A stretch of 64,000 nt of DNA from assembly GCA_025361285.1 (NCBI GenBank), contig JANYAP010000090.1, forward strand, positions 8,176 through 72,175. The letters are read 5' to 3'. The notes under the pieces were generated by a model that had not been told where the DNA came from, searched no databases, and worked only from the letters and a program-made list of their open reading frames with translations. Position 1 is the stretch's first letter; each line of letters starts with the position of its first letter. The translations under genes and the position numbers were made by a program. Of the stretch, positions 2,537 to 56,170 are shown piece by piece. The stretch comes from Bacteroidales bacterium. GTDB taxonomy: Bacteria; Bacteroidota; Bacteroidia; Bacteroidales; JAAUTT01.

Positions 2537-2602
2537 GGGAATGTGAAGATGTGATGATAGGGGAATGTGAAAATTTCAAATTACAGATGTGCAAATTACA
2601 AC
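2537..2602. repeat. 3'-flank repeat block (gggaatgtga / caaattaca words) starting right after the stop codon
   Basis: 'gggaatgtgaagatgtga...ggggaatgtgaaaat...caaattacagatgtgcaaattacaac'. It shares an exact 17-mer 'caaattacagatgtgca' with 10959-10975. Confidence 0.8.
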
Positions 2603-2612
2603 AATGATTTAT

Positions 2613-2642
2613 CTCTGTACTCTGTACTCAGTACTCAGTACA
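2613..2642. repeat. Octamer tandem array (ctgtactc/agtactc)
   Basis: 'ctctgtactctgtactcagtactcagtaca', period 8. Confidence 0.8.
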
Positions 2643-2676
2643 CTTTACTTATTACTAATGTCTTACAACTAATCCA

Positions 2677-3849
2677 ATGATAAAAGCATTTCAATTTGCT
2701 CAAACACCTAAAATTATTTTGGGGAACGGTAAAATAGCCGAATTGCCTGGAATTACAAAAAGTTTTGGAGGCGAGGTGCTGCTTGTAACAGGCGCAAACT
2801 CGTTTTATTTTTCTAAACACGGCGAATATTTATTGAATACCTTCGAAATGACAGGCGTACGTTGCCATCACATAATTATTGCCCGCGAACCTTCGCCCGA
2901 AATGATTGACCATGCAGCAATTCGATACCGTGATACGAACATTCAACTGGTTATTGCCATTGGTGGCGGTAGCGCTATCGATGCAGGAAAGGCTATTTCG
3001 GCAATGCTTAACAAAACCGAGTTAGTTACCGAGTTTTTGGAAGGGGTAGGGTCGAAGGATCATCCTGGAACAAAAGTGCCTTTTATAGCCGTTCCAACTA
3101 CCTCAGGTACAGGTAGCGAAGCAACTAAGAATGCCGTTATTTCGCGAATTGGCAGGAATGGCTTTAAACGATCGCTGCGCCACGATAATTTCGTTCCCGA
3201 TTATGCAATTGTCGACCCCGAATTAACTTATAACTGCCCGCCAAACATAACTGCTGCTTGTGGCATGGATTGCTTTACACAGCTTGTTGAAGCCTACTTG
3301 TCCGATAAATCATCGGTGCTTTCCGATGCATTGGCACTCGACGGCATCCGCACCCTAACAAACTCGTTACCACGCGCTTGGAAATGGGGTCAAGATATTG
3401 AAGCACGCACAGGCATGTCGTATGCAGCTTTGCAATCGGGTATTTGCCTCGCAAATGCGGGGTTAGGAGTTGTTCACGGGTTTGCCTCGTCGGTAGGAGC
3501 ATTGTACAACGTACCTCATGGTAATATTTGCGCTACATTAATGGCAACCGCTAACACAATAACCGTTAGGAAGCTACGCGAAGAAACGCCAAAGCATATT
3601 GCACTTATAAAATACGCCGAACTCGGAAAAATTACTTCCTCACAAGCAGGCAATTGCGACGAATATTATGTAGATGCGTTTCTCGATAAACTACACGAAT
3701 GGACTGATACAATGAACATTGCCCGTTTAAGTAGTTTTGGCGTTACCACCGACGATATCGATAAAATAGTTTCGGCTACCGATTGCAAAAATAACCCTAT
3801 AAAACTCAATAACAGCGAATTAAAGGAAATATTATTGCAAAGAATTTAG
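2677..3849 (+). CDS. Iron-containing (group III) alcohol dehydrogenase
   Basis: 390 aa. 'AIGGGSAIDAGKA' and 'PTTSGTGSE' are blocks typical of Fe-ADH. Confidence 0.85.
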   Translation: MIKAFQFAQTPKIILGNGKIAELPGITKSFGGEVLLVTGANSFYFSKHGEYLLNTFEMTGVRCHHIIIAREPSPEMIDHAAIRYRDTNIQLVIAIGGGSAIDAGKAISAMLNKTELVTEFLEGVGSKDHPGTKVPFIAVPTTSGTGSEATKNAVISRIGRNGFKRSLRHDNFVPDYAIVDPELTYNCPPNITAACGMDCFTQLVEAYLSDKSSVLSDALALDGIRTLTNSLPRAWKWGQDIEARTGMSYAALQSGICLANAGLGVVHGFASSVGALYNVPHGNICATLMATANTITVRKLREETPKHIALIKYAELGKITSSQAGNCDEYYVDAFLDKLHEWTDTMNIARLSSFGVTTDDIDKIVSATDCKNNPIKLNNSELKEILLQRI

Positions 3850-3870
3850 GCTGGAGGCTGGAGGCTGTAG
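3848..3870. repeat. Octamer array aggctggaggctggaggctgtag overlapping the adh stop codon
   Basis: Period-8 direct repeat. An inverted copy lies at 4054-4067. Confidence 0.85.
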
Positions 3871-3964
3871 ATCTTCTGACTTTGCGTAAACTATATTGTC
3901 CTAATTATTACCATTATTTAAGTATTGATTTTATCTTTAAGTCTGCTCGGTAAATACGATTTAG

Positions 3965-3992
3965 TGTCATTCCGACCTACGTCGGAATGACA
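3965..3992. repeat. Perfect 12-bp-stem palindromic hairpin (tgtcattccgac-ctac-gtcggaatgaca)
   Basis: Read directly from the sequence. It belongs to the same hairpin family as those inside 11065-11365. Confidence 0.9.
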
Positions 3993-4050
3993 GCATACTT
4001 TTAAGGATCGCCAATCTGGAGGGTTGTTCCATTCTTGGAATTGTACGACT

Positions 4051-4072
4051 CTTCCAGCCTCCAGCCTAAAAG
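4051..4072. repeat. Inverted copy of the ggctggag array, directly 3' of the minus-strand PPIase stop
   Basis: 'ccagcctccagcct' (4054-4067) is the exact reverse complement of 3848-3861. Confidence 0.85.
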
Positions 4073-4510
4073 CTACTCTTCGGTAACCACAATCTTTTCA
4101 ATTACATCGCCTTCGCGGATACTGTCGATAACATCCAAGCCATCGTAAACCTTGCCAAAGCAAGTGTGTACCCTATCGAGGTGGCTAGTATTTGAGCGGC
4201 TGTGGCACACAAAAAATTGCGATCCGCCAGTATCTTTACCTGCATGAGCCATCGATAGCACACCTCTATCGTGAAATTGATTATCGCCACCAGTTTCGCA
4301 CTTAATTTTGTACCCTGGGCCGCCAACGCCAGTACCTTTAGGGCATCCACCTTGTATAACAAAGTTTGGTATAACCCTGTGGAACGTTAAACCATTATAA
4401 AACCCTTCCTTCGAAAGCTTTACAAAATTAGCAACCGTGTTTGGAGCATCTTTATCGAAGAAATTAACCTTCATAACTCCCTTTTCTGTGTGAATTTCTG
4501 CTTTTGCCAT
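4073..4510 (-). CDS. Cyclophilin-type peptidyl-prolyl cis-trans isomerase
   Basis: 145 aa. '[13 protein letters not shown]' and 'GSQFFV' are cyclophilin signatures. Confidence 0.9.
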
Positions 4511-4711: not shown

Positions 4712-4719
4712 TAACTTTG
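4712..4719 (+). promoter_or_regulatory. Candidate Bacteroidota -7 box (TAACTTTG) upstream of the giant ORF
   Basis: It matches TAnnTTTG and lies 60 nt upstream of the GTG start. No clear -33 TTTG was found. Confidence 0.3.
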
Positions 4720-10943: not shown

Positions 10944-11017
10944 ATTAATTACAAATTACAAATTACAGATGTGCAGATGACAAATTACAAATGAGGGAAT
11001 GAGGAGATGTGAAAATT
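10944..11017. repeat. 3'-flank repeat block (aattacaa octamers plus gggaatg/gatgtgaaaat words)
   Basis: It starts right after the TAA stop. It is related to 2537-2602, with the exact 17-mer at 10959-10975. Confidence 0.8.
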
Positions 11018-11064: not shown

Positions 11065-11365
11065 GTTGTCATCCCGACGCAGGTAGGAGCATAGCGGTGT
11101 TGCTGTCATCCCGACGTAGGTCGGGATCCCTATCGGACGAACAACAGTAATGCAATAACGTACCCTTTATGGATTCCTACCTACGTCGGAATGACAGAAG
11201 GGGCGCGTTGTCATCCCGACGCAGGTAGGAGCATAGCGGTGTTGCTGTCATCCCGACGCAGGTAGGGATCCCTATCGGACGAACAACAGTAATGCAATAA
11301 CGTACCCTTATTGGATTCCGACCTACGTCGGAATGACAGTAGGGGGGGTGTTGTCATCTCGACAT
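11065..11365. repeat. Tandem repeat, 2.1 copies of a ~142-bp unit made of ccgac-NNNN-gtcgg hairpin motifs
   Basis: The units start at 11065, 11207 and 11350 (the last is partial). Each carries 'tgtcatcccgacg..' twice and the inverted 'cgtcggaatgacag'. The two full copies are near-identical. Confidence 0.9.
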
Positions 11366-12552: not shown

Positions 12553-12699
12553 GGTTTAGTGATAGAGTAGTTAGGTTGGCTTTCTTATTTTGTATTTTGA
12601 TTGTTAGTAACGTGTTGAAATACATGGAAATACATTGAAATATTTTTTATTTTAGTATTTATTTATTTATTTTTAACGCACTAATTTACAGTTTATTAT

Positions 12700-12730
12700 C
12701 TTGGCTCTTGGTTCTTGGTTCTTGGTTCTT
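12700..12730. repeat. Octamer array cttggctcttggttcttggttcttggttctt
   Basis: Period 8. Positions 12702-12717 are the exact reverse complement of 13611-26. Confidence 0.85.
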
Positions 12731-12778: not shown

Positions 12779-13573
12779 ATGAATAATTTAAAATTTGCAA
12801 TTATAGGTGCAGGAAATATGGGGTCGGCGATAGCTGAAGGTTTACTAAAAACTGGAAACATAGCTGCATCGAACATTTTTATTACCGACATGCGTGCACA
12901 AGCACTCGATAGGTTTAAGGTAAATGGCTGTAAAACTGACAGTAATAATATTAAAGCTGCAGCATTTGCCGATATAGTAATAATTGCCGTTAAGCCATAT
13001 CATGTAAAAACGCTTCTCGAAGAAATTAAAACTGAGCTTGTTACGGCAAAAAAGATAATTGTTTCCATTGCTGCCGGTGTAAGCATTGCCGATATTGAAC
13101 AAGTTGTAGGTAAAGTGCCTATTTTCAGAACAATGCCCAATACAGCCATTTCTATTCAGCAATCGATGACCTGCATTGCCGAGGCTAATACAACCAAGGA
13201 ACAGCAGTCCATGGTTTTGGAAATATTCGACCAATTAGGTAAAACCGTTATTATACCCGAAGATTTAATTAACGCCGCTACAGTATTGGGTTCGTGCGGT
13301 ACTGCTTATGCGCTAAGGTTTATACGTGCATCAATGGAAGGAGGCATCGAAATTGGTTTCAGTGCCGATATAGCGCAAACAATAGTTTCGCAAACCATGA
13401 TGGGTGCAGCAAACCTAATACTTGCCACTGGTAACCATCCCGAACAGGAAATTGACCGCGTTACCACACCTCAAGGCATTACTATTGCTGGTTTGAACGA
13501 AATGGAGCATCAAGGTTTTAGCTCCTCGGTAATTAAGGGAATTATAACTTCATATAATAAGGTAAAGAAATAG
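12779..13573 (+). CDS. proC: Pyrroline-5-carboxylate reductase
   Basis: 264 aa. N-terminal 'FAIIGAGNMGSAI' Rossmann motif and overall ProC-like layout. Confidence 0.9.
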   Translation: MNNLKFAIIGAGNMGSAIAEGLLKTGNIAASNIFITDMRAQALDRFKVNGCKTDSNNIKAAAFADIVIIAVKPYHVKTLLEEIKTELVTAKKIIVSIAAGVSIADIEQVVGKVPIFRTMPNTAISIQQSMTCIAEANTTKEQQSMVLEIFDQLGKTVIIPEDLINAATVLGSCGTAYALRFIRASMEGGIEIGFSADIAQTIVSQTMMGAANLILATGNHPEQEIDRVTTPQGITIAGLNEMEHQGFSSSVIKGIITSYNKVKK

Positions 13574-13610
13574 AGGCATATTATAGTTTTGAAGGAATTA
13601 TATTGAACGC

Positions 13611-13626
13611 AAGAACCAAGAGCCAA
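13611..13626. repeat. Inverted copy (aagaaccaagagccaa) of the 12702-12717 array
   Basis: Exact 16-nt reverse complement, so proC is bracketed by the pair. Confidence 0.85.
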
Positions 13627-17522: not shown

Positions 17523-19445
17523 TTAATTACTTGTGTTTTTTCTGCTAGTTGAAACTATAAAAGAGCCTGGAATAGCCAAAGTTTTAAATAATTTTTGTGC
17601 GTTTTTGTAGTTATTCCCAGCGTTGAACGAATACTTGTACCACCCATCTTCCTGAATAGTATCTAGTTTCAAGTCGCCAGTATAGAAACTCTTTAGAATA
17701 CTTTCAGACAATGGCACATGCGATGCTGCTATTTGTATTCTATAATTTACACTTTGCGAATTACTTACAGCCGATTGTTCGTTTTTTATTTGACGTTTAT
17801 AAACAATGGCAGGTGTTATTTTAATTCGTTTGCCGTTTACGTACGCAATTACAAAAGCACCAGGTACTTTAAGTTGATCTCGCATTTTTCGTGCCGATCG
17901 GTAATTGCTGTAAATACCAATGGCGTATTTAAACCATTTGTCCTCAAATAACTCGTCTATTTTTTCAATACCACCATAAATACCTGCTATTGTGTTCTTA
18001 TCTAATCGAATACGAGAAGCTGCAATTTGAACACGGAATACAAAACCAGAGGAATCCACTGATTTTGGTATATATTCCTGATTATAAATTGACTCGCCAA
18101 TAACTTTGTTTTTTTTGCCCTTTGGTTTATTAGTTGTGTTTTTAGATGTAAGTTGAGCATATTTAGCCTTTAACCGTTTGTTTTTTAGCCTATTTTCGGT
18201 TAGTAAAATTTTGCCTTCCGCTGAAGAAGTATCGATATTTGCCGTATCCACCATAGCGAGCTTTAATTTCGATGCATCGTCCTGTATTTTACTGTGGTAC
18301 AAATAGGTATGCCAAGCATCGGATAATTCGTTTATGTTTGAATAGTCTAATCGCTTAAAATCAATTACATAGCTTTCGTAATTTTGAGGGTAAGTCTTTT
18401 TAAGGAAACTATTAAATTGATCAATTTGCTCCTCGTTAACCTTAACTTTGCCGTATAAACTGGAATCGTTTCCAACTACAACGTCGTCGTATTTTATTGG
18501 TAATGGCTCTTTATCAATGCTTTTAACCAACGAAACTGTATCGGATTTTAATGTTTGTAGGTTAGTGCTATCAACCTTAGCTTGTTTGATAGGTCGAATC
18601 GATTTTTTTGTAGATGCTGAATCGGCAGATATGCTGTGTGTTACAGTTCTAATTTTAGCAGAATCGGCAATTATCGAATCGCGCTTAGCAACTGATTGTT
18701 TAACAATCGAATCTGTAGTTACAACAATGCTGTTTTTATGCTGGTTAGTTGTATCCTTAGCTGTGGTTAATTTTAAACCCGGAATGTCAGCTTTGTTTGA
18801 CATTACCCAATCTGTTTCATATTCAATTGGCCAAGTCAAATATGTATATAACACCTTCTGAATAATGGTTATATATGTATTTTCAAGTGTTTCTGCTTGC
18901 TGCAGTATCGTAACTTTTTCGGATAGATTGGTCTTTTTATCAGCTTGAGAGCGTAAGCTGTTCGCTTTATTAAATGGTTCTAGCGATGCATTTTCAACTT
19001 TCTTGGCATAATCTAACAATTGCTTATCGCCCTTATATTTTTTCCAAAACTGTTTTATATTCGACTGATATACTTTGTATTTGGTTTCGAAAGCCTTCTT
19101 ATAAAAATCGTCGGCTTCCAAACGTTTTAAAGCGTATTTTTTTGAGGTATTGGTTTTATCCTTCGTAGTATCGATTAACATATTTGCCTCTGTATCAGAT
19201 ATTAGCCCTTTATTGAAAATTTCATCCGATTTTGAAAGTTTCATTTGATCGGCAACCGAAATTTTCGAATGAAGTTCGCTTATATACGACTGTGCCCATG
19301 AGTGTTGCGAAATAGCAAGAATAATAAACACATAAATGTATTTTATTATCGAAGTTAAAGGACGTTTTGCAGCATATTTTATCATAAGGCAACTTAGAGT
19401 ATTCCCTGAATATGGTTTATTGTTTATTGCAATACTTCGATGCAT
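17523..19445 (-). CDS. Secreted protein with two C-terminal SPOR-like domains
   Basis: 640 aa. 'FRVQIAASR...' and 'YRIQIAASH...' are SPOR-type repeats. The true start is more likely the internal Met at 19385 ('MIKYAAKRP...SWAQ' signal peptide), because the upstream codons abut a repeat fragment. Confidence 0.7.
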   Translation of the reverse strand: MHRSIAINNKPYSGNTLSCLMIKYAAKRPLTSIIKYIYVFIILAISQHSWAQSYISELHSKISVADQMKLSKSDEIFNKGLISDTEANMLIDTTKDKTNTSKKYALKRLEADDFYKKAFETKYKVYQSNIKQFWKKYKGDKQLLDYAKKVENASLEPFNKANSLRSQADKKTNLSEKVTILQQAETLENTYITIIQKVLYTYLTWPIEYETDWVMSNKADIPGLKLTTAKDTTNQHKNSIVVTTDSIVKQSVAKRDSIIADSAKIRTVTHSISADSASTKKSIRPIKQAKVDSTNLQTLKSDTVSLVKSIDKEPLPIKYDDVVVGNDSSLYGKVKVNEEQIDQFNSFLKKTYPQNYESYVIDFKRLDYSNINELSDAWHTYLYHSKIQDDASKLKLAMVDTANIDTSSAEGKILLTENRLKNKRLKAKYAQLTSKNTTNKPKGKKNKVIGESIYNQEYIPKSVDSSGFVFRVQIAASRIRLDKNTIAGIYGGIEKIDELFEDKWFKYAIGIYSNYRSARKMRDQLKVPGAFVIAYVNGKRIKITPAIVYKRQIKNEQSAVSNSQSVNYRIQIAASHVPLSESILKSFYTGDLKLDTIQEDGWYKYSFNAGNNYKNAQKLFKTLAIPGSFIVSTSRKNTSN

Positions 19446-19446
19446 T

Positions 19447-19517
19447 TTTGCAACTTGCTAATAATTAACAACTTGAAATACATAGAAATTGAATAATTAG
19501 AAGTTTACCGAACTATT
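19447..19517 (+). mobile_element. Internally deleted copy of MITE-like family A
   Basis: 'tttgcaacttgct.ataat...ttgaaatacatagaaa' joins directly to 'aattagaagtttaccgaactatt'. Both parts align to 44657-44698 and 44760-44783. Confidence 0.7.
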
Positions 19518-19640
19518 GTTTATTAATGAAAATCAAAAAATACATTTGTTTATAAATTTATTAAAAAATGTAATAGTATAATTATAACTAGCTATAAATT
19601 TTTTACTTTCAGGCTACAATACTAAAATTAAATATTTTTA

Positions 19641-20259: not shown

Positions 20260-20282
20260 ATTGTATAATTTGTTGGTGTTTA

Positions 20283-20330
20283 CTTCTGACTTCCGACTTC
20301 CGACTTCCGACTTCTGACTTCTGACTTCTC
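20283..20330. repeat. Octamer array (tccgactt / tctgactt), 6 units, abutting the E1 TGA stop
   Basis: 'cttctgacttccgacttccgacttccgacttctgacttctgacttctc'. On the coding (minus) strand it reads tga-gaagtcagaagtcagaagtcggaagtcgg... Confidence 0.9.
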
Positions 20331-22371
20331 AGTACTTAAGTACTTCTATCATTGCTACTTCTATTTTATTGGTATTGGGTAAAATTGCAGCTTCTAAAAT
20401 TCGGTTAAAGCCCACTGGCGTGAAGGTTGATCCCACTCTTTTAACAGGAGCGTCGAGGTATTCGAAGGCTTCGTTAGCAATAATGGCTGCAATTTCGGCG
20501 CCAAAGCCAGCGAAAACCTTGTCCTCGTGAACAATAAGAGCTTTACCTGTTTTTTTTATCGATGCTATTATTGTTTCCTTATCGAGTGGAATTAGCGAGC
20601 GTAAATCTATCACTTCTATGGAGTTGCCATTTTCTTGTTTAAGCTTATTAGCGGCTTCGATACACATGTGCGTAGTGTTACCATAAGTAATTACGGTTAA
20701 GTCGGTTCCTTCTATGCGTACGAGGGCTTTTCCGAACGGTACTTCGTAATCGATGGGAACTGAGGTTATAGCTTGCACAGAGTTGTAGAGTGCTTTAGGT
20801 TCGCAAAATAGCGTAAAGCCTGGCGAGCGAAGGCTTGTACGTAATAATCCTGCGGCGTCGTCGGCAAACGATGGGTAAACAATTCGCACTCCTGGCAAGG
20901 TGGCAAGCGCTCCTTCAATATTCTGCGAATGGTATAGGCCACCACCAATATAGCCGCCCGACGCAAGCCTTACGGTAATATTCGGAACAAACTTGCCATT
21001 GCTACGCCAGTAATCGTGCGTGCATTCCACGAACTGTTCCATGGCTGGCCAAAAATAATCGGCAAACTCGGCACCTTCGGCAACAATGCGAATTTTTTTG
21101 TTAAATCGGCTCATTCCGTTGGCTGTGCCAAGAATATAGTCCTCGGCTATTGGGGCGTTAAACACCCTTTCTATACCAAATTCCTTCTGCATTCCTTTAC
21201 TTACATTAAAAATGCCGCCTTTATCCTTATTAGCAATGTCTTGTCCCCACAGAAAAGTATCGGGGTTATGCCTAAATTCGGCTTTTAAAGTTTCGTTAAT
21301 GGCTTCAATTAATTTTTTGGGTTCGCCTTGTTGGTTGTGGGTTCCGTTGGGGTATTTTGTTGAAATGTAAGGTTCGGGCGATACAAAGTCGAAGATAGAA
21401 TTCGGATCGGGATTTGGAGCAGCCAAAGCTTTCCGGTGAGCATCTTTTACCTCATCTTTTACTTGTTTATCAATGTCTTGAAGTTCTTCTGGCGACAGCC
21501 TATTATATCGTGTAAGAAGTCGGCGATATTTGGCAAGGGGGTCGTTATCGGCTACATAGCCTCTCTCAGCTTCATCGCGGTATAACTCGTGCTTGTCGGA
21601 ATTTGAATGCGAATGAATGCGCACACAGTTGGCTTGTACAAGTGCCGGCATCTGGTTTTCGACGACCCATTGTTTTGCTTCGGTCATAACATTCATCGAA
21701 TCAAACACATCCTTACCGTTGCAGTAAAATATTTTCAAATTTTTAAAACCCGAAAAGTTGTTGACTACTTTGCGGTTAGCTGTTTGATCCTTTTTCGGCA
21801 CCGAAATGCCATAACCATTGTCCTGAAAAACAAATATTACTGGTAGTTTTTCGTTCGATGCGCCATTGATTGCCTCATAAACATAGCCTTCCGACACCGA
21901 CGATTCGCCTTGCGAACTTATAGAAACTCCAATATGTTTATAGCGATTCATACCTCGCCCAACGCCAACGGCATGAAGCGTATGATTGCCAGTTGCCGAC
22001 GAAACGCTGTGAATATTCCATTCGGGTTTTGCAAAGTGGTTGGACATGTGCCTTCCTCCGCCAGCAACATCGGTGGCTTTCGAAATGCCGTTAAGTATAA
22101 TTTCCTCGGCTGTTAGTCCTGCCGATAACGAAGTTAACATGTCGCGATAATATGGAAACAGATGATCGGTGTTTCGGTCGAAAATCTGACCAATAGCCAA
22201 CTGAATGCCATCGTGGCCCGCATACGGCGCGTGGTAAGACCAGCCAATGGCCTGACGCAAATAATTAGGCGCTCGGTCGTCCAAAGCTCTGCCTAAAGTC
22301 ATAATATGTAGCCATTTACGCAAAACTTCTTTATCGGTATGTTTTATGCTAAACAATTTGTTGTTGTACAT
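20329..22371 (-). CDS. 2-oxoacid (branched-chain-type) dehydrogenase E1 component, fused alpha/beta subunits
   Basis: 680 aa. The N-terminal half resembles the TPP-binding alpha subunit and the C-terminal half resembles the transketolase-like beta subunit. It lies next to E2. Confidence 0.85.
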   Translation of the reverse strand: MYNNKLFSIKHTDKEVLRKWLHIMTLGRALDDRAPNYLRQAIGWSYHAPYAGHDGIQLAIGQIFDRNTDHLFPYYRDMLTSLSAGLTAEEIILNGISKATDVAGGGRHMSNHFAKPEWNIHSVSSATGNHTLHAVGVGRGMNRYKHIGVSISSQGESSVSEGYVYEAINGASNEKLPVIFVFQDNGYGISVPKKDQTANRKVVNNFSGFKNLKIFYCNGKDVFDSMNVMTEAKQWVVENQMPALVQANCVRIHSHSNSDKHELYRDEAERGYVADNDPLAKYRRLLTRYNRLSPEELQDIDKQVKDEVKDAHRKALAAPNPDPNSIFDFVSPEPYISTKYPNGTHNQQGEPKKLIEAINETLKAEFRHNPDTFLWGQDIANKDKGGIFNVSKGMQKEFGIERVFNAPIAEDYILGTANGMSRFNKKIRIVAEGAEFADYFWPAMEQFVECTHDYWRSNGKFVPNITVRLASGGYIGGGLYHSQNIEGALATLPGVRIVYPSFADDAAGLLRTSLRSPGFTLFCEPKALYNSVQAITSVPIDYEVPFGKALVRIEGTDLTVITYGNTTHMCIEAANKLKQENGNSIEVIDLRSLIPLDKETIIASIKKTGKALIVHEDKVFAGFGAEIAAIIANEAFEYLDAPVKRVGSTFTPVGFNRILEAAILPNTNKIEVAMIEVLKY

Positions 22372-22393: not shown

Positions 22394-22475
22394 AATACAT
22401 AGAAATACATAGAAATACATAGAAATATTTATCTATTTCCTTCTATTTGTATTATTTCTTTATTTCTATGTATTT
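22394..22475. repeat. Decamer array (atacatagaa x3) with an inverted partner 'tttctatgtattt'
   Basis: The direct repeats lie at 22395-22427. 22463-22475 is the exact reverse complement of 'aaatacatagaaa'. Confidence 0.85.
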
Positions 22476-22500
22476 GTATTTTCTTTCTTTCATAAAATCT

Positions 22501-23778: not shown

Positions 23779-23898
23779 AAATTGTTATTTTAAAATTATG
23801 TATAATTCTTATAACTAATTTACCTCATTTTTGTTCAACCTTCGATAGCGAAAATTGATGATTTGGTTTAAAATGCAGGTTCCTCGAAATAAATAAGA

Positions 23899-23988
23899 GG
23901 CTGTAGACTGTGGGCTGTAGACTTTAGGCTGTAGGCTGTAGGAGCTTCGGTGCAACCAATAAAATTAAACCTTATATGCAAATTCGAA
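23899..23988. repeat. Left inverted-repeat arm (ggctgtag octamers plus 58-bp core)
   Basis: The reverse complement of 23931-23988 aligns to 25527-25584 with 52/58 identities by hand alignment. The outer parts are related octamer arrays. Confidence 0.85.
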
Positions 23989-24124
23989 AATAGTGGTTAT
24001 TCGGCAAAAATAGTGTAAATGAAATTGTAAGTATTGTATAAAAATGATAAACATGGTAATAGGGTCGGTATAATTGTTGCATTTTTATTCGCTTTGTTTC
24101 ATAATATTTGTTTTGTTTAAAATT

Positions 24125-24272
24125 GCTCCCAACGTTTGCGGGTATGCGCCTGTGCGGGATTGCGGAGCGACGTTCCTATCAAACGAGGCGAAAGATTGAT
24201 GCGGGTGATGACCTTCGCATACCTCTGAAACCCTTATTGGCTGTACCGCGTGTTGTGGGCTGCATTTTTTTA
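24125..24272. ncRNA. Candidate structured non-coding element (GC-rich island); family unknown
   Basis: About 55% G+C by hand count over 24131-24263, within visibly AT-rich flanks. There is no convincing ORF. 'ggtatgcg' (24141-24148) is complementary to 'cgcatacc' (24216-24223). A 7-T run lies at 24265-24271. Confidence 0.35.
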
Positions 24273-25408: not shown

Positions 25409-25519
25409 TTGTTACAAAGAAAACTCGTTAAAGTGTCAAAAACATGGTTGTATGTCAATATTTATAAGAATTTTCAAATATTTTTATTGTTACTTTTTTT
25501 TCACTTTCGCTCATTAGAG
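25409..25519 (+). repeat. Family-D dispersed repeat, truncated copy
   Basis: It aligns to the reverse complement of 51265-51376 at roughly 85-90% identity by hand alignment ('gttac.aagaaaactcgttaaa.tgtcaaaaa.at.gttgtatgtcaatattta...tttcaaatattttt.ttgttactttttt'). Confidence 0.8.
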
Positions 25520-25526
25520 CAATAAT

Positions 25527-25617
25527 TTCGAATTCACATATAAGGTTCTATTTTATTGGTTGCACCGAAGCACCTACAGCCTCCAGTCTACAGCCTCCAG
25601 TCTCCAGTCTAAAGCCT
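25527..25617. repeat. Right inverted-repeat arm (58-bp core plus cctacagcc/ctccagtc octamers), ending 12 nt before the dcp stop
   Basis: See 23899-23988. Confidence 0.85.
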
Positions 25618-25629
25618 AAATTATTTCTC

Positions 25630-32013: not shown

Positions 32014-32058
32014 GCAAAGAGCGCAAGGGAATTAACCTTTGCGCTCTTTGCGTTTTTA
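32014..32058 (+). terminator. Intrinsic terminator (16-bp stem, aattaa loop, T-run) between convergent mscS and asnB
   Basis: 'gcaaagagcgcaaggg-aattaa-cctttgcgctctttgc' is followed by 'gttttta'. Confidence 0.85.
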
Positions 32059-34457: not shown

Positions 34458-34513
34458 TGGTTAGTACTGAGTATCTAGTAAATAGTATTTAGTACTTGGT
34501 ACTATGTACTCTG
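34458..34513. repeat. Degenerate (a/g)gtact word array starting directly after the lrp stop
   Basis: 'tggttagtactgagtatctagtaaatagtatttagtacttggtactatgtactctg'. Confidence 0.7.
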
Positions 34514-34874: not shown

Positions 34875-35046
34875 AAAACTACGTTTGGCTAGCTAGCAAT
34901 GGCTATAAATCATAACGGTTTCATCGCAGATTGCATGTTTTCGGCTCACGCCTCACAAGCGCAGAATATTAAAAGGAAACATCTTCGTTCAACCATCCAA
35001 AGCTTTCTGCCCAATTATTGGGGTCGTCAAATTATTACAAACCAAG

Positions 35047-35120
35047 TGATTCCGACGCGATTCGAACGCGTGACCCACAGCTTAGAAGGCTGTTGCTCTA
35101 TCCAACTGAGCTACGGAACC
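35047..35120 (-). tRNA. tRNA-Arg (anticodon TCT)
   Basis: Reverse complement is GGTTCCGTAGCTCAGTTGGATAGAGCAACAGCCTTCTAAGCTGTGGGTCACGCGTTCGAATCGCGTCGGAATCA. It has a 7-bp acceptor stem, D arm GCTC/GAGC, anticodon loop CT-TCT-AA, and T loop TTCGAAT. No CCA is encoded. Confidence 0.93.
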
Positions 35121-35132
35121 ATAAATCGGGTG

Positions 35133-35140
35133 CAAATTTA
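35133..35140 (-). promoter_or_regulatory. Candidate -7 box (TAAATTTG on the minus strand) for the tRNA-Arg gene
   Basis: Perfect TAnnTTTG match, 13-20 nt upstream of the tRNA 5' end. Confidence 0.4.
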
Positions 35141-35288
35141 TAAAAAAAATGCATTGTATATCAGGTTTCAGAAAATATTTACCAATTCGTACTTGCTAGC
35201 TCTACATAATTAATTCAATTGGCTTACAATTAATGGTTTGCAGTTCTATTTGGTTGTTTTCGAAAGCGAAAATGCCTTCCCTTTTCTT

Positions 35289-37575: not shown

Positions 37576-37580
37576 CGCGC

Positions 37581-37654
37581 TAATAACTAATAACTAATGT
37601 CTTACGCTAATGTTTTACGACTTACGACTAATATCTTACGACTACTATCTTACC
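37581..37654. repeat. Word array (taataact x2, then cttacgac(t) variants) beginning 6 nt after the pdxH stop
   Basis: 'taataactaataactaatgtcttacgctaatgttttacgacttacgactaatatcttacgactactatcttacc'. Confidence 0.75.
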
Positions 37655-37832
37655 TCTTCGACCTTGGCTTTATTCTTTCGCGCTCTTGGTATTTTCCAGT
37701 ATTACGCGGTACTTCCGATTTTTTGGGCATCATTAAATTGCGGCGCTCCGACACATCGCGCGACGAACTGCAACTATAAGATATTGATAATAAGAACAAT
37801 GCAATCACCGATAATAATGTATATTTTCTCAT
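37650..37832 (-). CDS. Small basic lipoprotein (60 aa), hypothetical
   Basis: Signal peptide 'MRKYTLLSVIALFLLSISYSC' with a lipobox Cys, followed by a Lys/Arg-rich tail. Confidence 0.5.
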   Translation of the reverse strand: MRKYTLLSVIALFLLSISYSCSSSRDVSERRNLMMPKKSEVPRNTGKYQERERIKPRSKR

Positions 37833-41623: not shown

Positions 41624-41650
41624 AGAACCAAGAGCCAAGAACCAAGAATC
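41624..41650. repeat. Octamer array agaaccaagagccaagaaccaagaatc, 6 nt after the ydcF stop
   Basis: It uses the same word as the proC-flanking arrays. Confidence 0.85.
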
Positions 41651-41843
41651 TGCGGAGAGAGCTTCACCGTTCGTAAATATTATTGTCGAAACAATAAGGT
41701 ATAAGGTTGGTTGTATGGGTGTCATATTTTTCTATTAAGGTTAAAAAAGTATAGTTAAAAACCTTATTTTAAATTTGTTAACCATAGTACAACAATACAC
41801 CGAGATTTCTAAAAACCCTATTAACCTTGTTTTTATGGCGGAC

Positions 41844-41959
41844 ATCCGACTTCCGACTTCCGACTTCTGTCTTCCGACTTCTGTCTTCTGACTTCCGTCT
41901 TCCGACTTCCGACTTCCGTCTTCCGACTTCGGACTTCCGTCTTCCGACTTCAGTCTTCA
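41844..41959. repeat. About 15-unit octamer array (tccgactt / ccgtcttc / ctgtcttc variants) abutting the ygiQ TGA stop
   Basis: Read directly from the sequence. It is the same word family as 20283-20330 and has the same orientation relative to the adjacent minus-strand gene. Confidence 0.9.
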
Positions 41960-43813
41960 GTCTTTCTTCCTTTTAAACAACTTTTCTATTAAGTCGGGGC
42001 GATTAATCTTAAACAACTCATTCTTAATTTGTTGCTGGTTTTCGGGCTTATAGTAGAAGAAAAATCGCTGTTGAGCTTTCTTTTCATCGGGATGGCGTGC
42101 GGTAAAAACTGGTTTCATGGAGTATGGATCTACACCCGAATAGTAAATAGCAGTAGATAAAGTCATTGGAGTTGGGGTAAAATCCTGTACCTGCTCTGGA
42201 AAAAATCCCATCTGTTTCAATTCGGCAGCCATTTCGGCCATATCGCTAGCTTTCGATGCCGGATGACTTGAAATAAGATACGGAATAATTTGCTGCTTAA
42301 TGCCCGCCACACGGCATATATTTTCGAAATTGATTTTTAGCTTCTGAAACATCTCAAACGATGGTTTACGCATACTTTTCAGAACGTGCGGTGCATTATG
42401 TTCGGGAGCCACCTTTAATCGACCCGAAACATGCTTTAACACTAACTCTTTCAAGTAAATACGAGCTTGTTTTTGCATTTCAACATCAGTTAAACCGTAA
42501 AACAAATCGTAACGAACACCACTACCAATAAATACCCTTTTAATACCGTTAACTGCCGACACTTTGCCATAAAGTTCGGTGAGCGATTTGTGCGAAGCAT
42601 TCAAGTTTTTACACACCGAAGGGTAAATGCACGAGGCTCTACGGCATTTTGCGCAGATAGTTAATTCCTTACCTCGCATGCGGTACATATTTGCCGACGG
42701 ACCACCCAAATCGGAAAGGTTTCCGCGAAAACCAGGCGTTTCTGTTACTTTTTTTACTTCGTCTAAAATCGATTTTTCGGAACGGCTTAGAATATGCTTT
42801 CCCTGATGTGCCGAAATGGTGCAAAAGCTGCAGCCACCAAAGCATCCACGGTGTATGTTCACCGAGTCGCGTATCATGAGGTAGGCCGGTATTGGTTCCT
42901 TGTCGTTATAACGAGGATGCGGCATTCGTGTAAAAGGTAAGCTATAAGGCTCATCTATTTCGTGTTGCGTGTAATCGATGTACGGCGGATTAACCACAAC
43001 TAACTTATTACCAAACGTTTCTAATAAACGAGCGGCATCGTCGCGGTTCGATTCTTCTTCGGTAATTTTGAAGTTTCGCGCATAATTGAGCTTATCTTTT
43101 TTACAATCGTCGAACGACAATAATGTTGTAGTACGTTTATACTTAAAGTCTTCTAGTTTTTCGGTTTTTTTTATCACAAAAGCCGTTTGCGGGATGTTGC
43201 GAAGCGATGATATTGTTTCTCCATTTTTAAGTTGCTGTACAATAGCACTTATAGGCTTTTCGCCCATTCCGTAAACCAGCAAGTCGGCACCGCTATCAAT
43301 TAGAATAGAGGGTTTTAGCGTATCGCTCCAATAATCGTAATGTGTTAGCCTACGCAGCGATGCCTCAATACCGCCAAGAACAACGGGCGTTTGTGGAAAT
43401 AGATTTTTTAATATTTGAGTGTAAACAGTTGCGGCATAATCGGGGCGTGCACCTGCCTTGCCACCTGGCGTGAAAGCATCTTCCGAACGTAGCCGGCGAT
43501 TAACGGTGTAATGGTTAATCATCGAGTCCATATTTCCAGCCGAAACGGCAAAGAATAACCGAGGTGTGCCAAGTTTTTTAAAATCGCGTAAATCGTCGCG
43601 CCAATTGGGCTGAGGCACAACGGCAACCTTTAAGCCTAAATGCTCAAGCCAACGCCCTATTACAGCAAGTCCAAACGATGGATGATCGACGTATGCATCT
43701 CCCGAAAATATGATTACATCGACCTCGCTCCATCCCAACAGTTTAATTTCTTTAGAAGAAGTGGGCAGCCAATTGTTATTATGATGCTTTTGCATAGAAA
43801 TATTCTCAGCCAC
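41957..43813 (-). CDS. ygiQ: YgiQ-family (UPF0313) radical SAM protein
   Basis: 618 aa. 'HRGCFGGCSFCTISAHQGK' cluster motif with N- and C-terminal YgiQ-type extensions. Confidence 0.88.
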   Translation of the reverse strand: MAENISMQKHHNNNWLPTSSKEIKLLGWSEVDVIIFSGDAYVDHPSFGLAVIGRWLEHLGLKVAVVPQPNWRDDLRDFKKLGTPRLFFAVSAGNMDSMINHYTVNRRLRSEDAFTPGGKAGARPDYAATVYTQILKNLFPQTPVVLGGIEASLRRLTHYDYWSDTLKPSILIDSGADLLVYGMGEKPISAIVQQLKNGETISSLRNIPQTAFVIKKTEKLEDFKYKRTTTLLSFDDCKKDKLNYARNFKITEEESNRDDAARLLETFGNKLVVVNPPYIDYTQHEIDEPYSLPFTRMPHPRYNDKEPIPAYLMIRDSVNIHRGCFGGCSFCTISAHQGKHILSRSEKSILDEVKKVTETPGFRGNLSDLGGPSANMYRMRGKELTICAKCRRASCIYPSVCKNLNASHKSLTELYGKVSAVNGIKRVFIGSGVRYDLFYGLTDVEMQKQARIYLKELVLKHVSGRLKVAPEHNAPHVLKSMRKPSFEMFQKLKINFENICRVAGIKQQIIPYLISSHPASKASDMAEMAAELKQMGFFPEQVQDFTPTPMTLSTAIYYSGVDPYSMKPVFTARHPDEKKAQQRFFFYYKPENQQQIKNELFKINRPDLIEKLFKRKKD

Positions 43814-44640: not shown

Positions 44641-44783
44641 AATAGTTCGGTGCAAGTTTGCAACTTGCTTATAATAAAAAAGTTGAAATACATAGAAAAA
44701 AGTTGAAATATTTTATATTTCTATGTATTTCCACGTATTACAAATACGTGGAAATTTAAAAATTAGAAGTTTACCGAACTATT
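44641..44783 (+). mobile_element. MITE-like family A, reference copy (143 bp)
   Basis: Perfect 11-bp terminal inverted repeats 'aatagttcggt'/'accgaactatt'. Nested hairpins are 'gcaagtt-tgc-aacttgc', 'gaaatacatagaaa...tttctatgtatttc' and 'ccacgtatt-aca-aatacgtgg'. Confidence 0.8.
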
Positions 44784-51208: not shown

Positions 51209-51376
51209 TAGTGACTCTAAGAAAACTCTTCTTTGGTTACTTTTTTCGATAACTTAGCGAAGCGTTCTCATGAGCGAAAGCGAATAAAAAAGTAACAAGA
51301 AAAATATTTGAAACTTATTGTAAATATTGACATACAACTATATTTTTGACATTTTAACGAGTTTTCTTAGTAACAC
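51209..51376 (-). mobile_element. Family-D MITE-like element, full copy (168 bp)
   Basis: Terminal inverted repeats 'gtgactctaagaaaactc' and 'gagttttcttagtaacac' (16/18). Internal 11-bp inverted repeat 'gttactttttt/aaaaaagtaac' and palindrome 'ctcatgag'. It aligns to 25409-25519. Confidence 0.75.
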
Positions 51377-52976: not shown

Positions 52977-52984
52977 TACTTTTG
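52977..52984 (+). promoter_or_regulatory. Candidate -7 box (TACTTTTG) for gcvT
   Basis: Perfect TAnnTTTG match ending 17 nt before the ATG. Confidence 0.4.
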
Positions 52985-53001
52985 TGCAAAAAAAATAAAT
53001 A

Positions 53002-54090
53002 ATGAAACGTACAGTTTTTTACGATATACATAAAGCACTGGGTGCTCGCATAGTACCGTTTGCTGGTTACGAAATGCCAGTAGAATATTCGGGCGTTACT
53101 CTCGAACATCTTGCCGTTCGCAATTCGGTAGGGGTTTTCGATGTATCGCACATGGGCGAATTTTGGGTTAAAGGTCCTAAAGCATTCGATTTAATTCAAA
53201 AAGTAACCTCCAACGATGCCTCGAAATTATTTATCGGAAAAACCCAATACTCGTGCTTTCCCAATGGCAAAGGCGGTATTGTTGACGATTTAATAGTTTA
53301 CAAATACGCCAACGATAAATACTTGCTTGTAGTAAACGCATCAAACATTGATAAGGATTGGGCTTGGATAAATAGCCAAAATACCTTTGGTGCCGAATTG
53401 GAAAACGCATCCGATAAAATATCGCAGCTGGCCATTCAGGGTCCAAATGCAGTGAAAGTATTGCAAAAATTAACAAAAGTTAATCTTTCAGCGATACTTA
53501 CCTATACATTTGTAGTTGAGGAGTTTGCAGGTGCGAAGGAGGTAATAATTTCATATACGGGATACACTGGTGCAGGTGGTTTTGAATTATATTTCTATAA
53601 TAATGATGGAGTAAATATTTGGAATAAAATTTTCGAAGCAGGCGAGGAATTTGGTATTAAGCCAATTGGTTTGGCAGCCCGCGATACTCTTCGCCTCGAA
53701 ATGGGCTATTCGTTATACGGTAATGATATTGACGACACTACCTCATCGATAGAAGCTGGTTTGGGTTGGATTACTAAATTTTCTGATGGTAAGGATTTTA
53801 TCGATCGCGAATATCTTTTAAACCAGAAAACAAAAGGCGTTGAGCGCAAACTTGTTGGTTTCGAGATGCTTGAAAAAGCAATTCCCCGTAACGGCTATGC
53901 TATTGTAAACGAGAATGGCACCGAAATAGGAGTTGTTACATCAGGAACTATGTCACCATGTCTTAAAAATGGTATTGGCATGGGATATGTAAAATCAACG
54001 TACTCACTAATTGATAGCGAGATATCTATAAATATTAGGAATAAACAAATTAAGGCAAAAGTGGTTAAAATGCCGTTTTATTCTAAATAA
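53002..54090 (+). CDS. gcvT: Glycine cleavage system aminomethyltransferase (T protein)
   Basis: 362 aa. '[12 protein letters not shown]...EH.AVR...GVFDVSHMG' N-terminal block. Confidence 0.93.
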
Positions 54091-54165
54091 TGTTTTAGAT
54101 TTGTATCTGATAATAAGGTATGGCATAGAGATATTGCTCTTTATGCCATTTTTTAATTTGATAAA

Positions 54166-54894
54166 ATGGAAGTTGTTACTAAAAAAGTTGAAGTTTGTTT
54201 TTCGCCAGCACTGTTCAATTACTACCAAAACCCCGAAGCTATTGTGGTTGTTGTTGACGTTCTGCGCGCTACATCCGCCATCTGCGCTGCTTTTATGAAT
54301 GGTGTGGAAAAAGTTATTCCAATTGGCACCGTTGAAGAAGCTATAGAATATAAAAATAAAGGATATTTAGTTGCTGCTGAGCGCGATGGCTTTGTGCTCG
54401 ACTTTGCCGATTTCGGCAATTCGCCATTTAACTTTACCGCTAACCGAGTAAAAGGTAAAACAATTGTTTACAGCACAACCAATGGTACTCAGGCAATTAA
54501 CATAGCCAGTTCGTGTTATAGTGTTGTTATTGGGGCGTTTATAAATATTTCGGCACTTTCAAATTGGTTAAAAAAACAGCAACGCGATGTAATTATTTTT
54601 TGTGCCGGTTGGAAAGGTCGGTTTAGCTTAGAGGACACTATTTTGGCCGGAGCACTTACCGAAAAATTACTCGAAAGTGCTAGTTATGAAACTGTTTGCG
54701 ATTCGGCATTGGCATCACTCGACTTATGGTATGTAGCCAAACCTAATCTTTTAGTTTATATCAACAAAACGGCTCAGCGCAACCGACTTAAAAAAAATGG
54801 TCTCGACGATGTAATTGAATATTGCCATACACCTGACATTACTGATATTATACCAATTTACACTAACGGCTTTTTAACAGCAATAACCCAATAA
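54166..54894 (+). CDS. comB: 2-phosphosulfolactate phosphatase family protein
   Basis: 242 aa. 'VVVDVLRATS' and 'FGNSP' blocks. Confidence 0.8.
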   Translation: MEVVTKKVEVCFSPALFNYYQNPEAIVVVVDVLRATSAICAAFMNGVEKVIPIGTVEEAIEYKNKGYLVAAERDGFVLDFADFGNSPFNFTANRVKGKTIVYSTTNGTQAINIASSCYSVVIGAFINISALSNWLKKQQRDVIIFCAGWKGRFSLEDTILAGALTEKLLESASYETVCDSALASLDLWYVAKPNLLVYINKTAQRNRLKKNGLDDVIEYCHTPDITDIIPIYTNGFLTAITQ

Positions 54895-55044
54895 TTAAAA
54901 ATTTAATTAACAATTTCTTGATAATAATTAGCTCATTTGTACAGTTATTCTTTAAAAATAGTAACAAAATTCAATTAACTTTGGCTTGTTTTTTAAATTA
55001 CAGTAAATTTTAATTTCAACATATAACCAAAACCTCACTTTGCA

Positions 55045-56115
55045 ATGAAAAAATACAATTTTAATGCTGGTCCATCTATCTTACCCGAGTTTACAATTCA
55101 GGAAACTGTTAAAGCTATTCAAAACCTTAATGGCAGTGGATTCTCGTTAATGGAAATATCGCATCGTAGTAAGGATTTCGAAGCTATTTTAGCCGAAACA
55201 ATAACTTTGTTTAAAGAATTACTTCAAATTCCCGATGGTTATTCATTATTGTTTCTTGGCGGTGGTGCTAGCTTGCAGTTTTGCATGATACCGTACAACT
55301 TTCTAAACACAAAAGCAGCGTACCTTAATACTGGCGTATGGGCTTCAAAGGCTTTAAAAGAAGCTAAATTCTTTGGCGAAACGGTTGAAGTAGCTACTTC
55401 GAAAGATAAAAACTTTAATTACATACCAAAAGGATATGTTGTACCTGCCGATGCCGATTATTTTCATATAACAACAAACAATACTATATACGGAACTGAA
55501 ATACACACCGATATCGATTCGAAAGTACCACTTATTGCCGATATGTCGTCGGATATTTTGAGCCGTACAATGGATGTTTCGAAGTATGCTTTGATATATG
55601 GTGGTGCTCAGAAAAACCTTGGACCAGCAGGTGTTACGTTCGTAATTATTAAAAACGAACTTTTGAAAAGTCAAAAAAAACAAATTCCTTCTATACTTGA
55701 TTATAAGCAACATATCGAAAACGATTCGATGTATAATACACCACCGTGTGTGCCTATTTACGCATGTTTGCAAACATTAAAATGGATTAAAAATTTAGGC
55801 GGTGTTGCCGAACTCGAAAAAATAAACATTAAAAAGGCTCAAATTCTTTATGATGAAATAGATAGAAACAAAATTTTTAAAGGAACTGCCGTTAAAGAAG
55901 ATAGATCGTTAATGAACGTTTGCTTTGTTATGAGCGAGCCTTTTGCAGCACTCGAGGATGAATTTATGGAATTTACCAAGAAAAAAGGAGTTGTTGGTAT
56001 AAAAGGTCATCGTTCGGTTGGTGGCTTCCGAGCATCTATATACAATGCAATGCCAATCGAAGGCGTTCAGGTATTGGTTGATGCAATGAAAGAATTTGAA
56101 AAATTGAAAGTTTAA
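55045..56115 (+). CDS. serC: Phosphoserine aminotransferase
   Basis: 356 aa. '[11 protein letters not shown]' N-terminus and '[13 protein letters not shown]' PLP-Lys region. Confidence 0.93.
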
Positions 56116-56170
56116 AATAATACCTAATACTAAGTACTAGGTACTAGGTACTTAGTAATTAGTAATTACC
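56116..56170. repeat. gtact/ggtact/agtaatt word array starting directly after the serC stop
   Basis: 'aataatacctaatactaagtactaggtactaggtacttagtaattagtaattacc'. Confidence 0.75.

Follow-up and report, generated by a model that had tools for sequence, protein, structure and literature searches.

The window analyzed here is a stretch of 64,000 nucleotides from the genome of a Bacteroidales bacterium (GenBank assembly GCA_025361285.1, contig JANYAP010000090.1, positions 8,176 to 72,175). According to Pfam matches, it carries components of the type IX secretion system (T9SS), namely PorP/SprF and CHU_C, together with ordinary housekeeping genes, and its host belongs to the Bacteroidota. The closest genomes are metagenome-assembled genomes (MAGs) of Bacteroidales/Marinilabiliales, in which the E1 protein of a 2-oxoacid dehydrogenase is at most 81% identical to that of the window. 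Roughly 15% of the window is non-coding, and it is mostly there that the elements considered in this work are found: arrays of tandemly repeated heptanucleotides that begin at, or shortly behind, the stop codons of genes. Heptamer repeats are the most over-represented class of long simple sequence repeats (SSRs) in many bacteria, and their origin and role have been in question since 1990.

Sequence data and repeat detection

Arrays in the window were called with Tandem Repeats Finder (TRF; about 25 short arrays) and with a lag-match scan covering lags 4-12, in which a score of at least 10 was required for the test of excess and a score of at least 8 for the positional set of 21 arrays. The excess was judged against 200 composition-preserving block shuffles of the window, and distances to stop codons against a null in which every array was re-placed at random inside its own intergenic region. 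For comparison, we used relatives (80 for array density, 82 loci for orientation; ca. 1.35-1.38 Mb), as well as samples of the same population, comprising the MAG GCA_043724375.1 and four SRA samples, which are nearly clonal (0.2-0.4% single-nucleotide polymorphisms).

Unit length and repeat words

At lag 7, the scan returned 14-15 arrays with a score of at least 10, whereas the shuffles averaged 0.06 and never gave more than 1, and every other lag yielded at most two. Pooled intergenic DNA peaks at lags 7, 14, 21, and 28; coding DNA shows no peaks. An initial annotation of the window had listed 13 gene ends with tandem arrays and given their period as 8. TRF and the sequences confirm an array at 12 of these 13 sites, the E2 site belonging instead to a period-10 family, and the period is 7 for nearly all of them: each of the earlier octamers (ggctggag, gaaccaag, gaagtcgg, aattacaa, taataact) is one heptamer extended by the base that begins the following unit. 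The words found in the window are GGCTGGA/GGCTGTA, GAAGTCR, AGAACCA, AATTACA, GTACTNA, CTAATAA, CTTACGA, and GATGTGA/GGGAATG, in arrays of 2-17 units.

Non-coding DNA holds 16 of the 21 arrays of the positional set and, in 1.38 Mb from the relatives, 46 arrays against 6 in coding DNA. With head-to-tail units of seven nucleotides, a mostly intergenic location, and words dispersed over several loci, the arrays have the broad properties of heptanucleotide long SSRs (LSSRs) and of repeats resembling the short tandemly repeated repetitive (STRR) sequences. A universal vocabulary of words was rejected, since sharing between genomes (11 against 5.8 expected) was not significant. In IMG/VR, (GAAGTCG)3 is 5-10 times commoner than two permuted controls. 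Heptamer words bearing ATG are scarce on both strands in the window and its relatives (5 of 118 strand-words, where about 12.6 would be expected), which may reflect avoidance of start codons that would recur in all three frames.

Placement relative to stop codons

An array starts within 40 nt after the stop codon of 12 of the 45 genes in the window. Within 40 nt before a start codon, arrays occur at five genes, three of these being stop-adjacent arrays in short tandem spacers. Ten of 15 intergenic arrays lie no more than 25 nt from a stop codon, where 3.9 are expected under random placement (p=1e-4), and the same null revealed no enrichment of the 15 arrays near start codons. The statement of the initial annotation that arrays begin at or near stop codons is thereby borne out beyond mere confinement to intergenic DNA. 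Convergent gene pairs contribute most of the signal: in convergent regions of 223-589 nt, six of seven arrays hug a stop codon (p=0.001), and adjacency in the tandem regions of the window, taken by themselves, is not significant. The divergent intergenic DNA of the window (1.7 kb) holds one weak array, at 62775..62794; divergent regions of the relatives are not so empty.

A degenerate first unit often opens with the stop codon itself, as in adh (TAGGCTG/GAGGCTG), E1 (TGAGAAG/TCAGAAG), and ygiQ (TGAAGAC/TGAAGTC/GGAAGAC); in the cyclophilin and dcp genes, the stop codon lies in phase one or two units upstream of the array. TAG serves as stop codon in 6 of the 12 array-adjacent genes and in 7 of the 33 others. 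Gene truncation was rejected as a source of this adjacency: Pfam models reach the last residues of the array-adjacent genes, and the length of YgiQ is normal for its clade. The genes thus end at natural C-termini, and the adjacency is not a truncation artefact.

Distribution among relatives

Array density amounts to 234 per Mb in the window against 34 per Mb in the 80 relatives (1.35 Mb), of which only a few (L088, L013, and L009) are rich in arrays. The same gene ends lack arrays in the nearest relative with a long contig, L262, whose YgiQ is 84% identical and whose 21.8 kb hold no array with a score of at least 10. There, a 4-nt overlap joins ygiQ and ydcF and leaves no spacer, whereas in the window these two genes stand 339 nt apart, and arrays occupy both edges of the interval. 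At proC, orthologues with 76-78% identity are accompanied by other repeats or none at the same place.

In the loci obtained, synteny is limited to the E2-E1-flavodoxin trio, which is shared by 74-80 relatives. Its E1-flavodoxin spacer measures only 13-30 nt in several relatives and has independently acquired different words in different genomes, with GAAGTCR in the window, AGTTYAA x10 in L013, and TTATGAA x4, which takes in the start codon, in L019; the E2-E1 spacer holds three other words in three relatives. Since unrelated words occupy the same spacer in different lineages, the arrays represent recurrent, local, lineage-specific gains. In a BLAST comparison of intergenic against intergenic DNA of the window, no shared flanks were detected beyond the arrays except for a single 98-nt inverted pair, and a mobile element with a shared body or termini, such as a MITE (miniature inverted-repeat transposable element) or a repetitive extragenic palindromic (REP) sequence, was rejected on these grounds.

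Short-read contigs of the host tend to break in intergenic repeats, as seen in Logan assemblies: contig L082 begins inside the TCTTGGT array at 12699-12730, and L249-L251 stop in a hairpin at 3986. Fragmented MAGs would therefore under-report such repeats. Arrays that break short-read assemblies, with contigs ending inside them, are also candidate loci for strain typing.

Orientation and the purine-rich strand

Stop-adjacent arrays of one word always share one sense, which upholds, for these arrays, the earlier claim of a constant orientation relative to the coding strand; the claim fails for two arrays upstream of start codons, TCTTGGT at 12699-12730 and AGGCTGT at 23898-23942, which have the opposite orientation. 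A more general regularity concerns base composition. Read 5'->3', the purine-rich strand leads away from the closest open reading frame (ORF) in 13 of 15 arrays of the window and 31 of 44 in the 82 loci of relatives (44/59 together, p=2e-4), on either side of the ORF and whatever the direction of the gene. For stop-adjacent arrays, the purine-rich strand is the sense strand, the pyrimidine-rich array after pdxH being an exception. Background strand composition was rejected as the cause, as non-array flanks contain 0.51 purine on either side. A role as all-frame stop signals was likewise rejected: stop triplets occur in 21 and 20 of 35 units on the two strands, and this equality leaves such a role unsupported.

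A purine-rich strand that points outward from the ORF at either flank, whichever way the gene runs, is what one would expect if arrays were junction scars, that is, units added by synthesis to 3' ends where intergenic DNA had broken, prior to the joining of filler or foreign DNA, and hence marks of the border between conserved and acquired sequence. The ygiQ/ydcF spacer, which grew from 0 to 339 nt and has arrays at its edges and unique DNA in the middle, is consistent with this idea, as are the orphan ORF 24270-25151, flanked by a 98-nt inverted repeat with outer arrays, and proC, which lies outside its usual proB-proC context between inverted arrays. A role in rearrangement has also been suggested for other heptamer repeats (MacGregor 2015, PMC4679880). 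However, the E1-flavodoxin and serC spacers hold an array alone between conserved neighbours, a homologue of the orphan ORF occurs in another genome without arrays, no enzyme for such a synthesis is known or was identified, and a small sample of viral contigs did not reproduce the purine rule (11 against 9). We thus consider junction scars quite unlikely.

One word across taxa

The word GAAGTCG was followed beyond the relatives in at least 120 JGI metagenome contigs and 20 IMG/VR contigs carrying (GAAGTCG)3, with GC contents of 0.29-0.69. ORFs in these contigs were crude longest-ORF calls, the upstream ORFs being long (median of about 240 amino acids). Among the matches listed, (GAAGTCG)3 starts no more than 11 nt from a stop codon in 21 of 29 cases in sense orientation and in 0 of 16 in antisense orientation (Fisher p=1.2e-6). 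Symmetric calling errors would not produce such an asymmetry. Taken together with the window, this test shows that the rule of stop codon and strand is independent of the potential to form G-quadruplexes (G4).

One IMG/VR contig (L103, GC 0.41) carries arrays of the STRR2 type (ATTGGTC/ATTAGTC and AATGACC, of the TTGGTCA type) beside GAAGTCG and CAAGTAT arrays; the same words thus occur in cyanobacterium-like and Bacteroidota genomes.

This link of orientation to stop codons bears on a further possibility, that of iteron-like DNA sites where a protein of the nucleoid, or one of replication or recombination, would bind. Word families are genome-specific, as would suit such sites, and heptamers repeated four or five times in Geobacter have been annotated as putative global regulator sites (PMC2700814). 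In addition, many phage contigs conserve (AGAACCA)3-4 in their DNA sequence within DUF1376 genes of the replication type. Yet the orientation and the stop codon point to transcript or translation rather than duplex DNA, the words are many and unrelated, and no candidate protein was found, which makes this explanation very improbable. In a set of 120 IMG/VR contigs, at least 100 phage contigs (GC 0.36-0.68) have this repeat in the middle of the DUF1376 gene, where it encodes a TKNQEPRTKNQ linker; it may represent an origin or an iteron within a replication gene. As a coding feature, the IMG/VR (AGAACCA)3 was rejected as an instance of the phenomenon described here.

Folding and transcription termination

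The initial annotation had proposed that the arrays act as terminators or 3'-end elements, having noted only one classical hairpin terminator in the window. At least two exist, at 32014-32058 (z=-7.3) and 54120-54149 (z=-4.2), although the impression of scarcity was fair, as terminator-like hairpins as a class do not exceed shuffle expectation in 60 kb. This scarcity and the location of the arrays, where terminators would be expected, could be read as the replacement of hairpins by an unconventional signal, and transcripts were seen to start or stop somewhat more often at G4-capable repeats (Rehm et al. 2015, PMC4692102). Against this stands the folding of the arrays. In sense orientation, array regions give z-scores of -2.3 to +2.6, around zero or positive for most, and have no U-tract; the GC-rich hairpin followed by a U-tract that marks intrinsic terminators is absent. 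Most regions are not more structured than their own shuffles and several are less so. Only arrays with a palindromic GTAC core fold, and the moderate folding of the lrp array is due to this core.

Neither do the arrays resemble rut sites, which are C-rich, G-poor, unstructured, and about 70 nt or longer: most arrays are 15-50 nt long, and most sense strands contain more G than C, with (G-C)/length positive in 7 of 11 stop-adjacent arrays and above +0.2 in five. Moreover, the 69-nt spacer that the E1 array fills is internal to the E2-E1-flavodoxin operon, with the array 22 nt before the next start codon, the serC array takes up a spacer of 75 nt, and arrays are absent from the nearest and other relatives. 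We therefore rejected the arrays as terminator substitutes, a role that appears extremely improbable.

Individual arrays and other repeats

The arrays and the other repeats of the window are collected in the table. Some arrays are related to each other beyond their words: a 23-nt composite is common to the array behind ORF 1271..2536 and positions 10953-10975, and an 18-nt perfect inverted copy of the cyclophilin array lies at 3845-3862.

Table. Heptamer arrays and further repeats in the window, in order of position.
Position	Strand	Feature	Folding or detection
2537..2676	+	Degenerate heptamers filling the whole 140-nt spacer after ORF 1271..2536, in the order GGGAATG/GATGTGA/AATTACA, (CTCTGTA/CTCAGTA)x4 at 2613-2641, CTAATGT/CTTACAA	TRF, lag scan
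3848..3870	+	(AGGCTGG)x3 after adh; TAG stop is first triplet of first unit	unstructured, z=+2.6
3965-3993		12-bp-stem hairpin (TGTCATTCCGACCTACGTCGGAATGACA) with T-rich tail in the adh/cyclophilin convergent spacer, related to the palindromes at 11065-11363	
4053..4075	-	(GGCTGGA)x2 after cyclophilin gene, sense; TAG stop one degenerate unit upstream, in phase	
10944..11012	+	(AATTACA)x3, then GATGTGC/GGGAATG-type units; 3 nt past stop of a 2054-aa PKD/T9SS protein	
11065-11363		142-nt unit x2.1, ca. 93-96% identity, with CTGTCATCCCGACGTAGGTCGGGATCC-type palindromes	
12699..12730	+	(TCTTGGT)x4.6, 48 nt upstream of proC start; reverse complement of AGAACCA arrays; exception to stop adjacency	
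13610..13626	+	(CAAGAAC)x2.4, 36 nt past proC stop; inverted partner of 12699-12730	
20282..20331	-	(GAAGTCR)x6.9 from TGA stop of E1; 22 nt upstream of flavodoxin start; intra-operon	
22394..22491	-	Not a heptamer array: (AATACATAGA)x3.4 plus inverted copy, a long AU-rich hairpin between E2 and E1	z=-4.9
23898..23942	+	(AGGCTGT/AGACTGT)x6.4, 122 nt upstream of E2 start, antisense to flanking genes; outer part of 98-nt inverted repeat	
25410-25514, 51270-51375		106-nt intergenic repeat, inverted, 90.6% identical	
25573..25618	-	(GGCTGTA/GACTGGA)x6 after peptidase M3 gene (dcp); in phase with TAA 14 nt upstream; other arm of 98-nt inverted repeat	
34458..34513	+	Eight degenerate NNNAGTA units right after lrp TAG stop; GTA core invariant	z=-2.3
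37580..37660	+	(CTAATAA)x2.7, then CTAATGT/CTTACGA units; 4 nt past pdxH TAG stop	
41624..41648	+	(AGAACCA)x3.6, 6 nt past stop of DUF218 gene (ydcF)	
41841..41964	-	(GGAAGWC)x17, overlapping ygiQ TGA stop by 8 nt; higher-order period 21	
56116..56170	+	(CTAAGTA/CTAGGTA)x5, then (GTAATTA)x3, filling the 75-nt spacer from serC to 2-hydroxyacid dehydrogenase gene	
62775..62794		(ATGAATT)x2.9 abutting start codon of ORF 62042..62776, divergent region	

The 98-nt inverted repeat (23898-23995 and 25520-25617) is 84% complementary, its outer 45 nt or so being the heptamer arrays, and brackets a 293-residue orphan ORF (24270-25151) with five homologues in 5.8 billion proteins. This region looks like an inserted or invertible cassette. 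A homologue with 73% identity sits among PIN/PemK toxin-antitoxin genes without arrays, and a link between the arrays and this ORF was rejected on this basis. The proC gene (12779-13573), flanked by TCTTGGT upstream and its inverted copy CAAGAAC downstream, has a T9SS PorP gene and an AhpC gene as its neighbours, in contrast to the proB-proC cluster retained by relatives; should the two flanking arrays be co-transcribed, they could base-pair with each other across the mRNA.

Direct as well as inverted copies of the decamer GAAATACATAGAAA occur in a dispersed element of about 140 nt (86-90% identity), which is always located upstream of a gene start (19441-19523, 28846-28984, 44641-44783, also 12617-12642 and 22394-22491). 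It may be regulatory or MITE-like; its copy in the E2-E1 spacer folds into the long hairpin with z=-4.9. The sole Rfam match in the window is a tRNA gene at 35047-35120 (-) with 68.6 bits, which overlaps a 104-residue ORF at 34899-35213 (+) on the opposite strand; because of this overlap, the ORF is probably spurious. The 589-nt region from lrp to the tRNA gene holds no further recognised feature in the window.

Origin of the arrays

The arrays are heptanucleotide SSRs of the class that includes STRRs, the Xanthomonas and Nostoc repeats, and TAACTGA. From their behaviour, we infer that they are probably, on balance, slippage products that persist as passengers in the spacers behind stop codons. 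Several genome-specific word families have bloomed here in one Bacteroidota lineage. Slipped-strand mispairing would seed and resize the arrays, with steps of several units giving rise to the higher-order periods of 14 and 21 nt. Coding sequence, promoters, and 5' leaders would exclude arrays, which would survive only where they are harmless, in the transcribed but untranslated stretch right past a stop codon. As ancestral spacers would have been tiny (0-30 nt), an expansion would necessarily abut the stop codon. The strand rule could result from selection on the transcript or from easier expansion where naked, ribosome-free nascent RNA is purine-rich, through instability of the R-loop type. 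The arrays would then be passengers of 3' untranslated regions (UTRs) and intra-operon spacers rather than dedicated signals. The suggestion of the initial annotation that the arrays are footprints of a repeat-generating process at gene ends is the better fit, given independent words in each spacer and their restriction to lineages, while slippage as that process would be a further step of interpretation.

Several observations weigh against this account. In the convergent spacers of 220-590 nt, arrays sit at the edges and are not spread throughout, and in the relatives the enrichment at stop codons vanishes once the 50 nt upstream of starts are treated as forbidden. No change in unit number was seen at five arrays across the MAG and the four SRA samples, which are near-identical (0.2-0.4% single-nucleotide polymorphisms). 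Identical words recur at different loci of one genome (11 pairs against 1.4 expected, with a maximum of 7 in 200 nulls), and decayed arrays can keep an invariant core of three nucleotides, such as NNNAGTA x8 after lrp. Among the matches listed for (GAAGTCG)3, TAG is the adjacent stop codon in 14 of 31 cases (45%) against a background of 25% (p=0.011). Finally, a single word obeys the position and orientation rule across GC contents of 0.29-0.69, which looks like more than mere tolerance.

Some of these points would be accounted for by a functional RNA element behind the stop codon, an unstructured, purine-rich, multivalent 3' UTR platform bound by an RNA-binding protein or the ribosome. The initial annotation had also named RNA-binding-protein elements as an option, an idea that the results neither favour nor disfavour. 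HutP reads UAG-N4 repeats, and a HutP- or TRAP-like reader with a period of 7 might act here on the release or recycling of ribosomes, on how stable the mRNA is, or on its coupling with the gene that follows. The coupling of position to orientation in unrelated taxa (21/29 against 0/16 among the matches listed), the enrichment of TAG, stop codons in phase with the first unit, words that recur within a genome, and the scarcity of structure in array regions all speak for such an element, as do the invariant cores of decayed arrays and the (U/G)AG-N4 periodicity of the adh, dcp, and lrp arrays. Such an element is, however, difficult to reconcile with words as dissimilar as GGCTGGA, GAAGTCG, AGAACCA, AATTACA, and CTAATAA, with copy numbers of 2-17, with adjacent genes that have no common function, and with the lack of arrays at orthologous gene ends in the nearest and most other relatives. 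Xanthomonas RNA-seq likewise yielded no regulatory correlate (Rehm et al. 2015, PMC4692102). We regard this alternative as possible but rather unlikely.

A broader proposition, to which we give somewhat less credence and which we deem unlikely, is a post-stop feature of many phyla, consisting of heptamer arrays that are purine-rich in sense, start from the stop codon, over-represent TAG, and are made or used by something tied to translation termination. It might involve R-loop-driven expansion where the nascent RNA first becomes free of ribosomes, or a platform for a ribosome-associated or period-7 RNA-binding factor.

One lead in this direction concerns 16S rRNA. GAAGTCG and GGCTGGA presumably equal stretches of its conserved 3'-terminal 52 nt or so (judged by the universal primer sites 1492R and 1541R), and CTTACGA would complement AGTCGTA in the same region. 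Words of this kind make up the window arrays at 20282-20331, 41841-41964, 3848-3870, 4053-4072, 25573-25618, and 37615-37653. The likeness has a rough, post hoc p of 0.003-0.05, no exact match was found by eye among about 45 array words of the relatives, and none of the loci obtained holds a 16S gene. It could be a coincidence, or it hints at mimicry of, or pairing with, the 3' region of 16S rRNA.

Relation to known repeat systems

Mazel et al. are said to have described, in 1990, the STRR heptamers of heterocystous cyanobacteria, reportedly with the words CCCCAGT, TTGGTCA, and CAACAGT. Like these, the arrays of the window comprise several heptamer families, each scattered over many intergenic sites of one genome. 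They are not STRRs in the strict sense, as the host is a member of the Bacteroidota and not a heterocystous cyanobacterium, and the three words do not occur in the window. Heptanucleotides of Calothrix PCC 7601 are cited in PMC4692102.

The initial annotation knew of no description of the pattern, but heptamer arrays of this kind had been described in 2015 (Rehm et al. 2015, PMC4692102; MacGregor 2015, PMC4679880). Rehm et al. reported repeats of GGGAATC in Xanthomonas and of GGGGA(C/T)T in Nostoc/Anabaena, of which about 90% are intergenic, at a mean distance of 28 nt from the upstream ORF compared with 160 nt to the next. Downstream of ORFs, the G-rich strand is the coding one, and upstream of them it is the non-coding one; the repeats are depleted between divergent genes, are mostly transcribed, and vary among close relatives. 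No function was found, although transcripts begin or end somewhat more often at G4-capable heptamer repeats (PMC4692102). Since stop-codon proximity and strand bias were reported there, the pattern was already known, without an explanation. The window arrays share with these repeats the 7-nt unit, the intergenic, stop-proximal, and strand-biased placement, and the paucity in divergent regions. They differ in that, in the genomes studied by Rehm et al., a single G4-forming word dominates, preferably in four units, whereas the window of a Bacteroidota host has at least eight unrelated words in 2-17 units. The four or more consecutive GGG(G) units of a G-quadruplex are absent from the window arrays, in which GGG tracts occur only in two GGGGAATG units at 2537-2565.

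MacGregor described TAACTGA direct repeats in Beggiatoaceae, cyanobacteria, and five Bacteroidetes, as well as other heptamer arrays in Gramella, Aequorivita, and Elizabethkingia; arrays are missing from close relatives with the same neighbourhood, some overlap stop codons, and a role in rearrangement was suggested (PMC4679880). In BOGUAY, the single word TAACTGA lies mostly just upstream of start codons and in forward orientation, whereas the window arrays lie mostly just after stop codons; the nearest word of the window, CTAATAA, is a rotation of TAACTAA and thus one mismatch off. In Geobacter metallireducens, multicopy elements consist of heptanucleotides repeated four or five times at 15-49 sites of one genome; unlike the window arrays, they have a fixed copy number, are also intragenic, and bear annotations, made without an analysis of position, as regulatory elements or putative global regulator sites (PMC2700814). 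A Nostoc preprint ascribes regulatory effects to heptamer repeats upstream of genes.

REP sequences and bacterial interspersed mosaic elements (BIMEs) also pile up downstream of genes, are co-transcribed, and are genome-specific, but REPs are palindromic hairpin units mobilised by RAYT transposases, whereas the window arrays are non-palindromic tandem repeats without shared flanks. With the SSRs of contingency loci, they share the short tandem repeats prone to slippage; those SSRs, however, are found in the promoter or the 5' coding part of genes concerned with the surface or with restriction-modification, where they switch expression, whereas the window arrays follow the stop codons of housekeeping genes. 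Compared with all of these systems, what is new here is the Bacteroidota host lineage, the many words that do not form G-quadruplexes, and a rule that is independent of G4 potential, which weakens G4-based explanations and points to the end of translation or the transcript strand.

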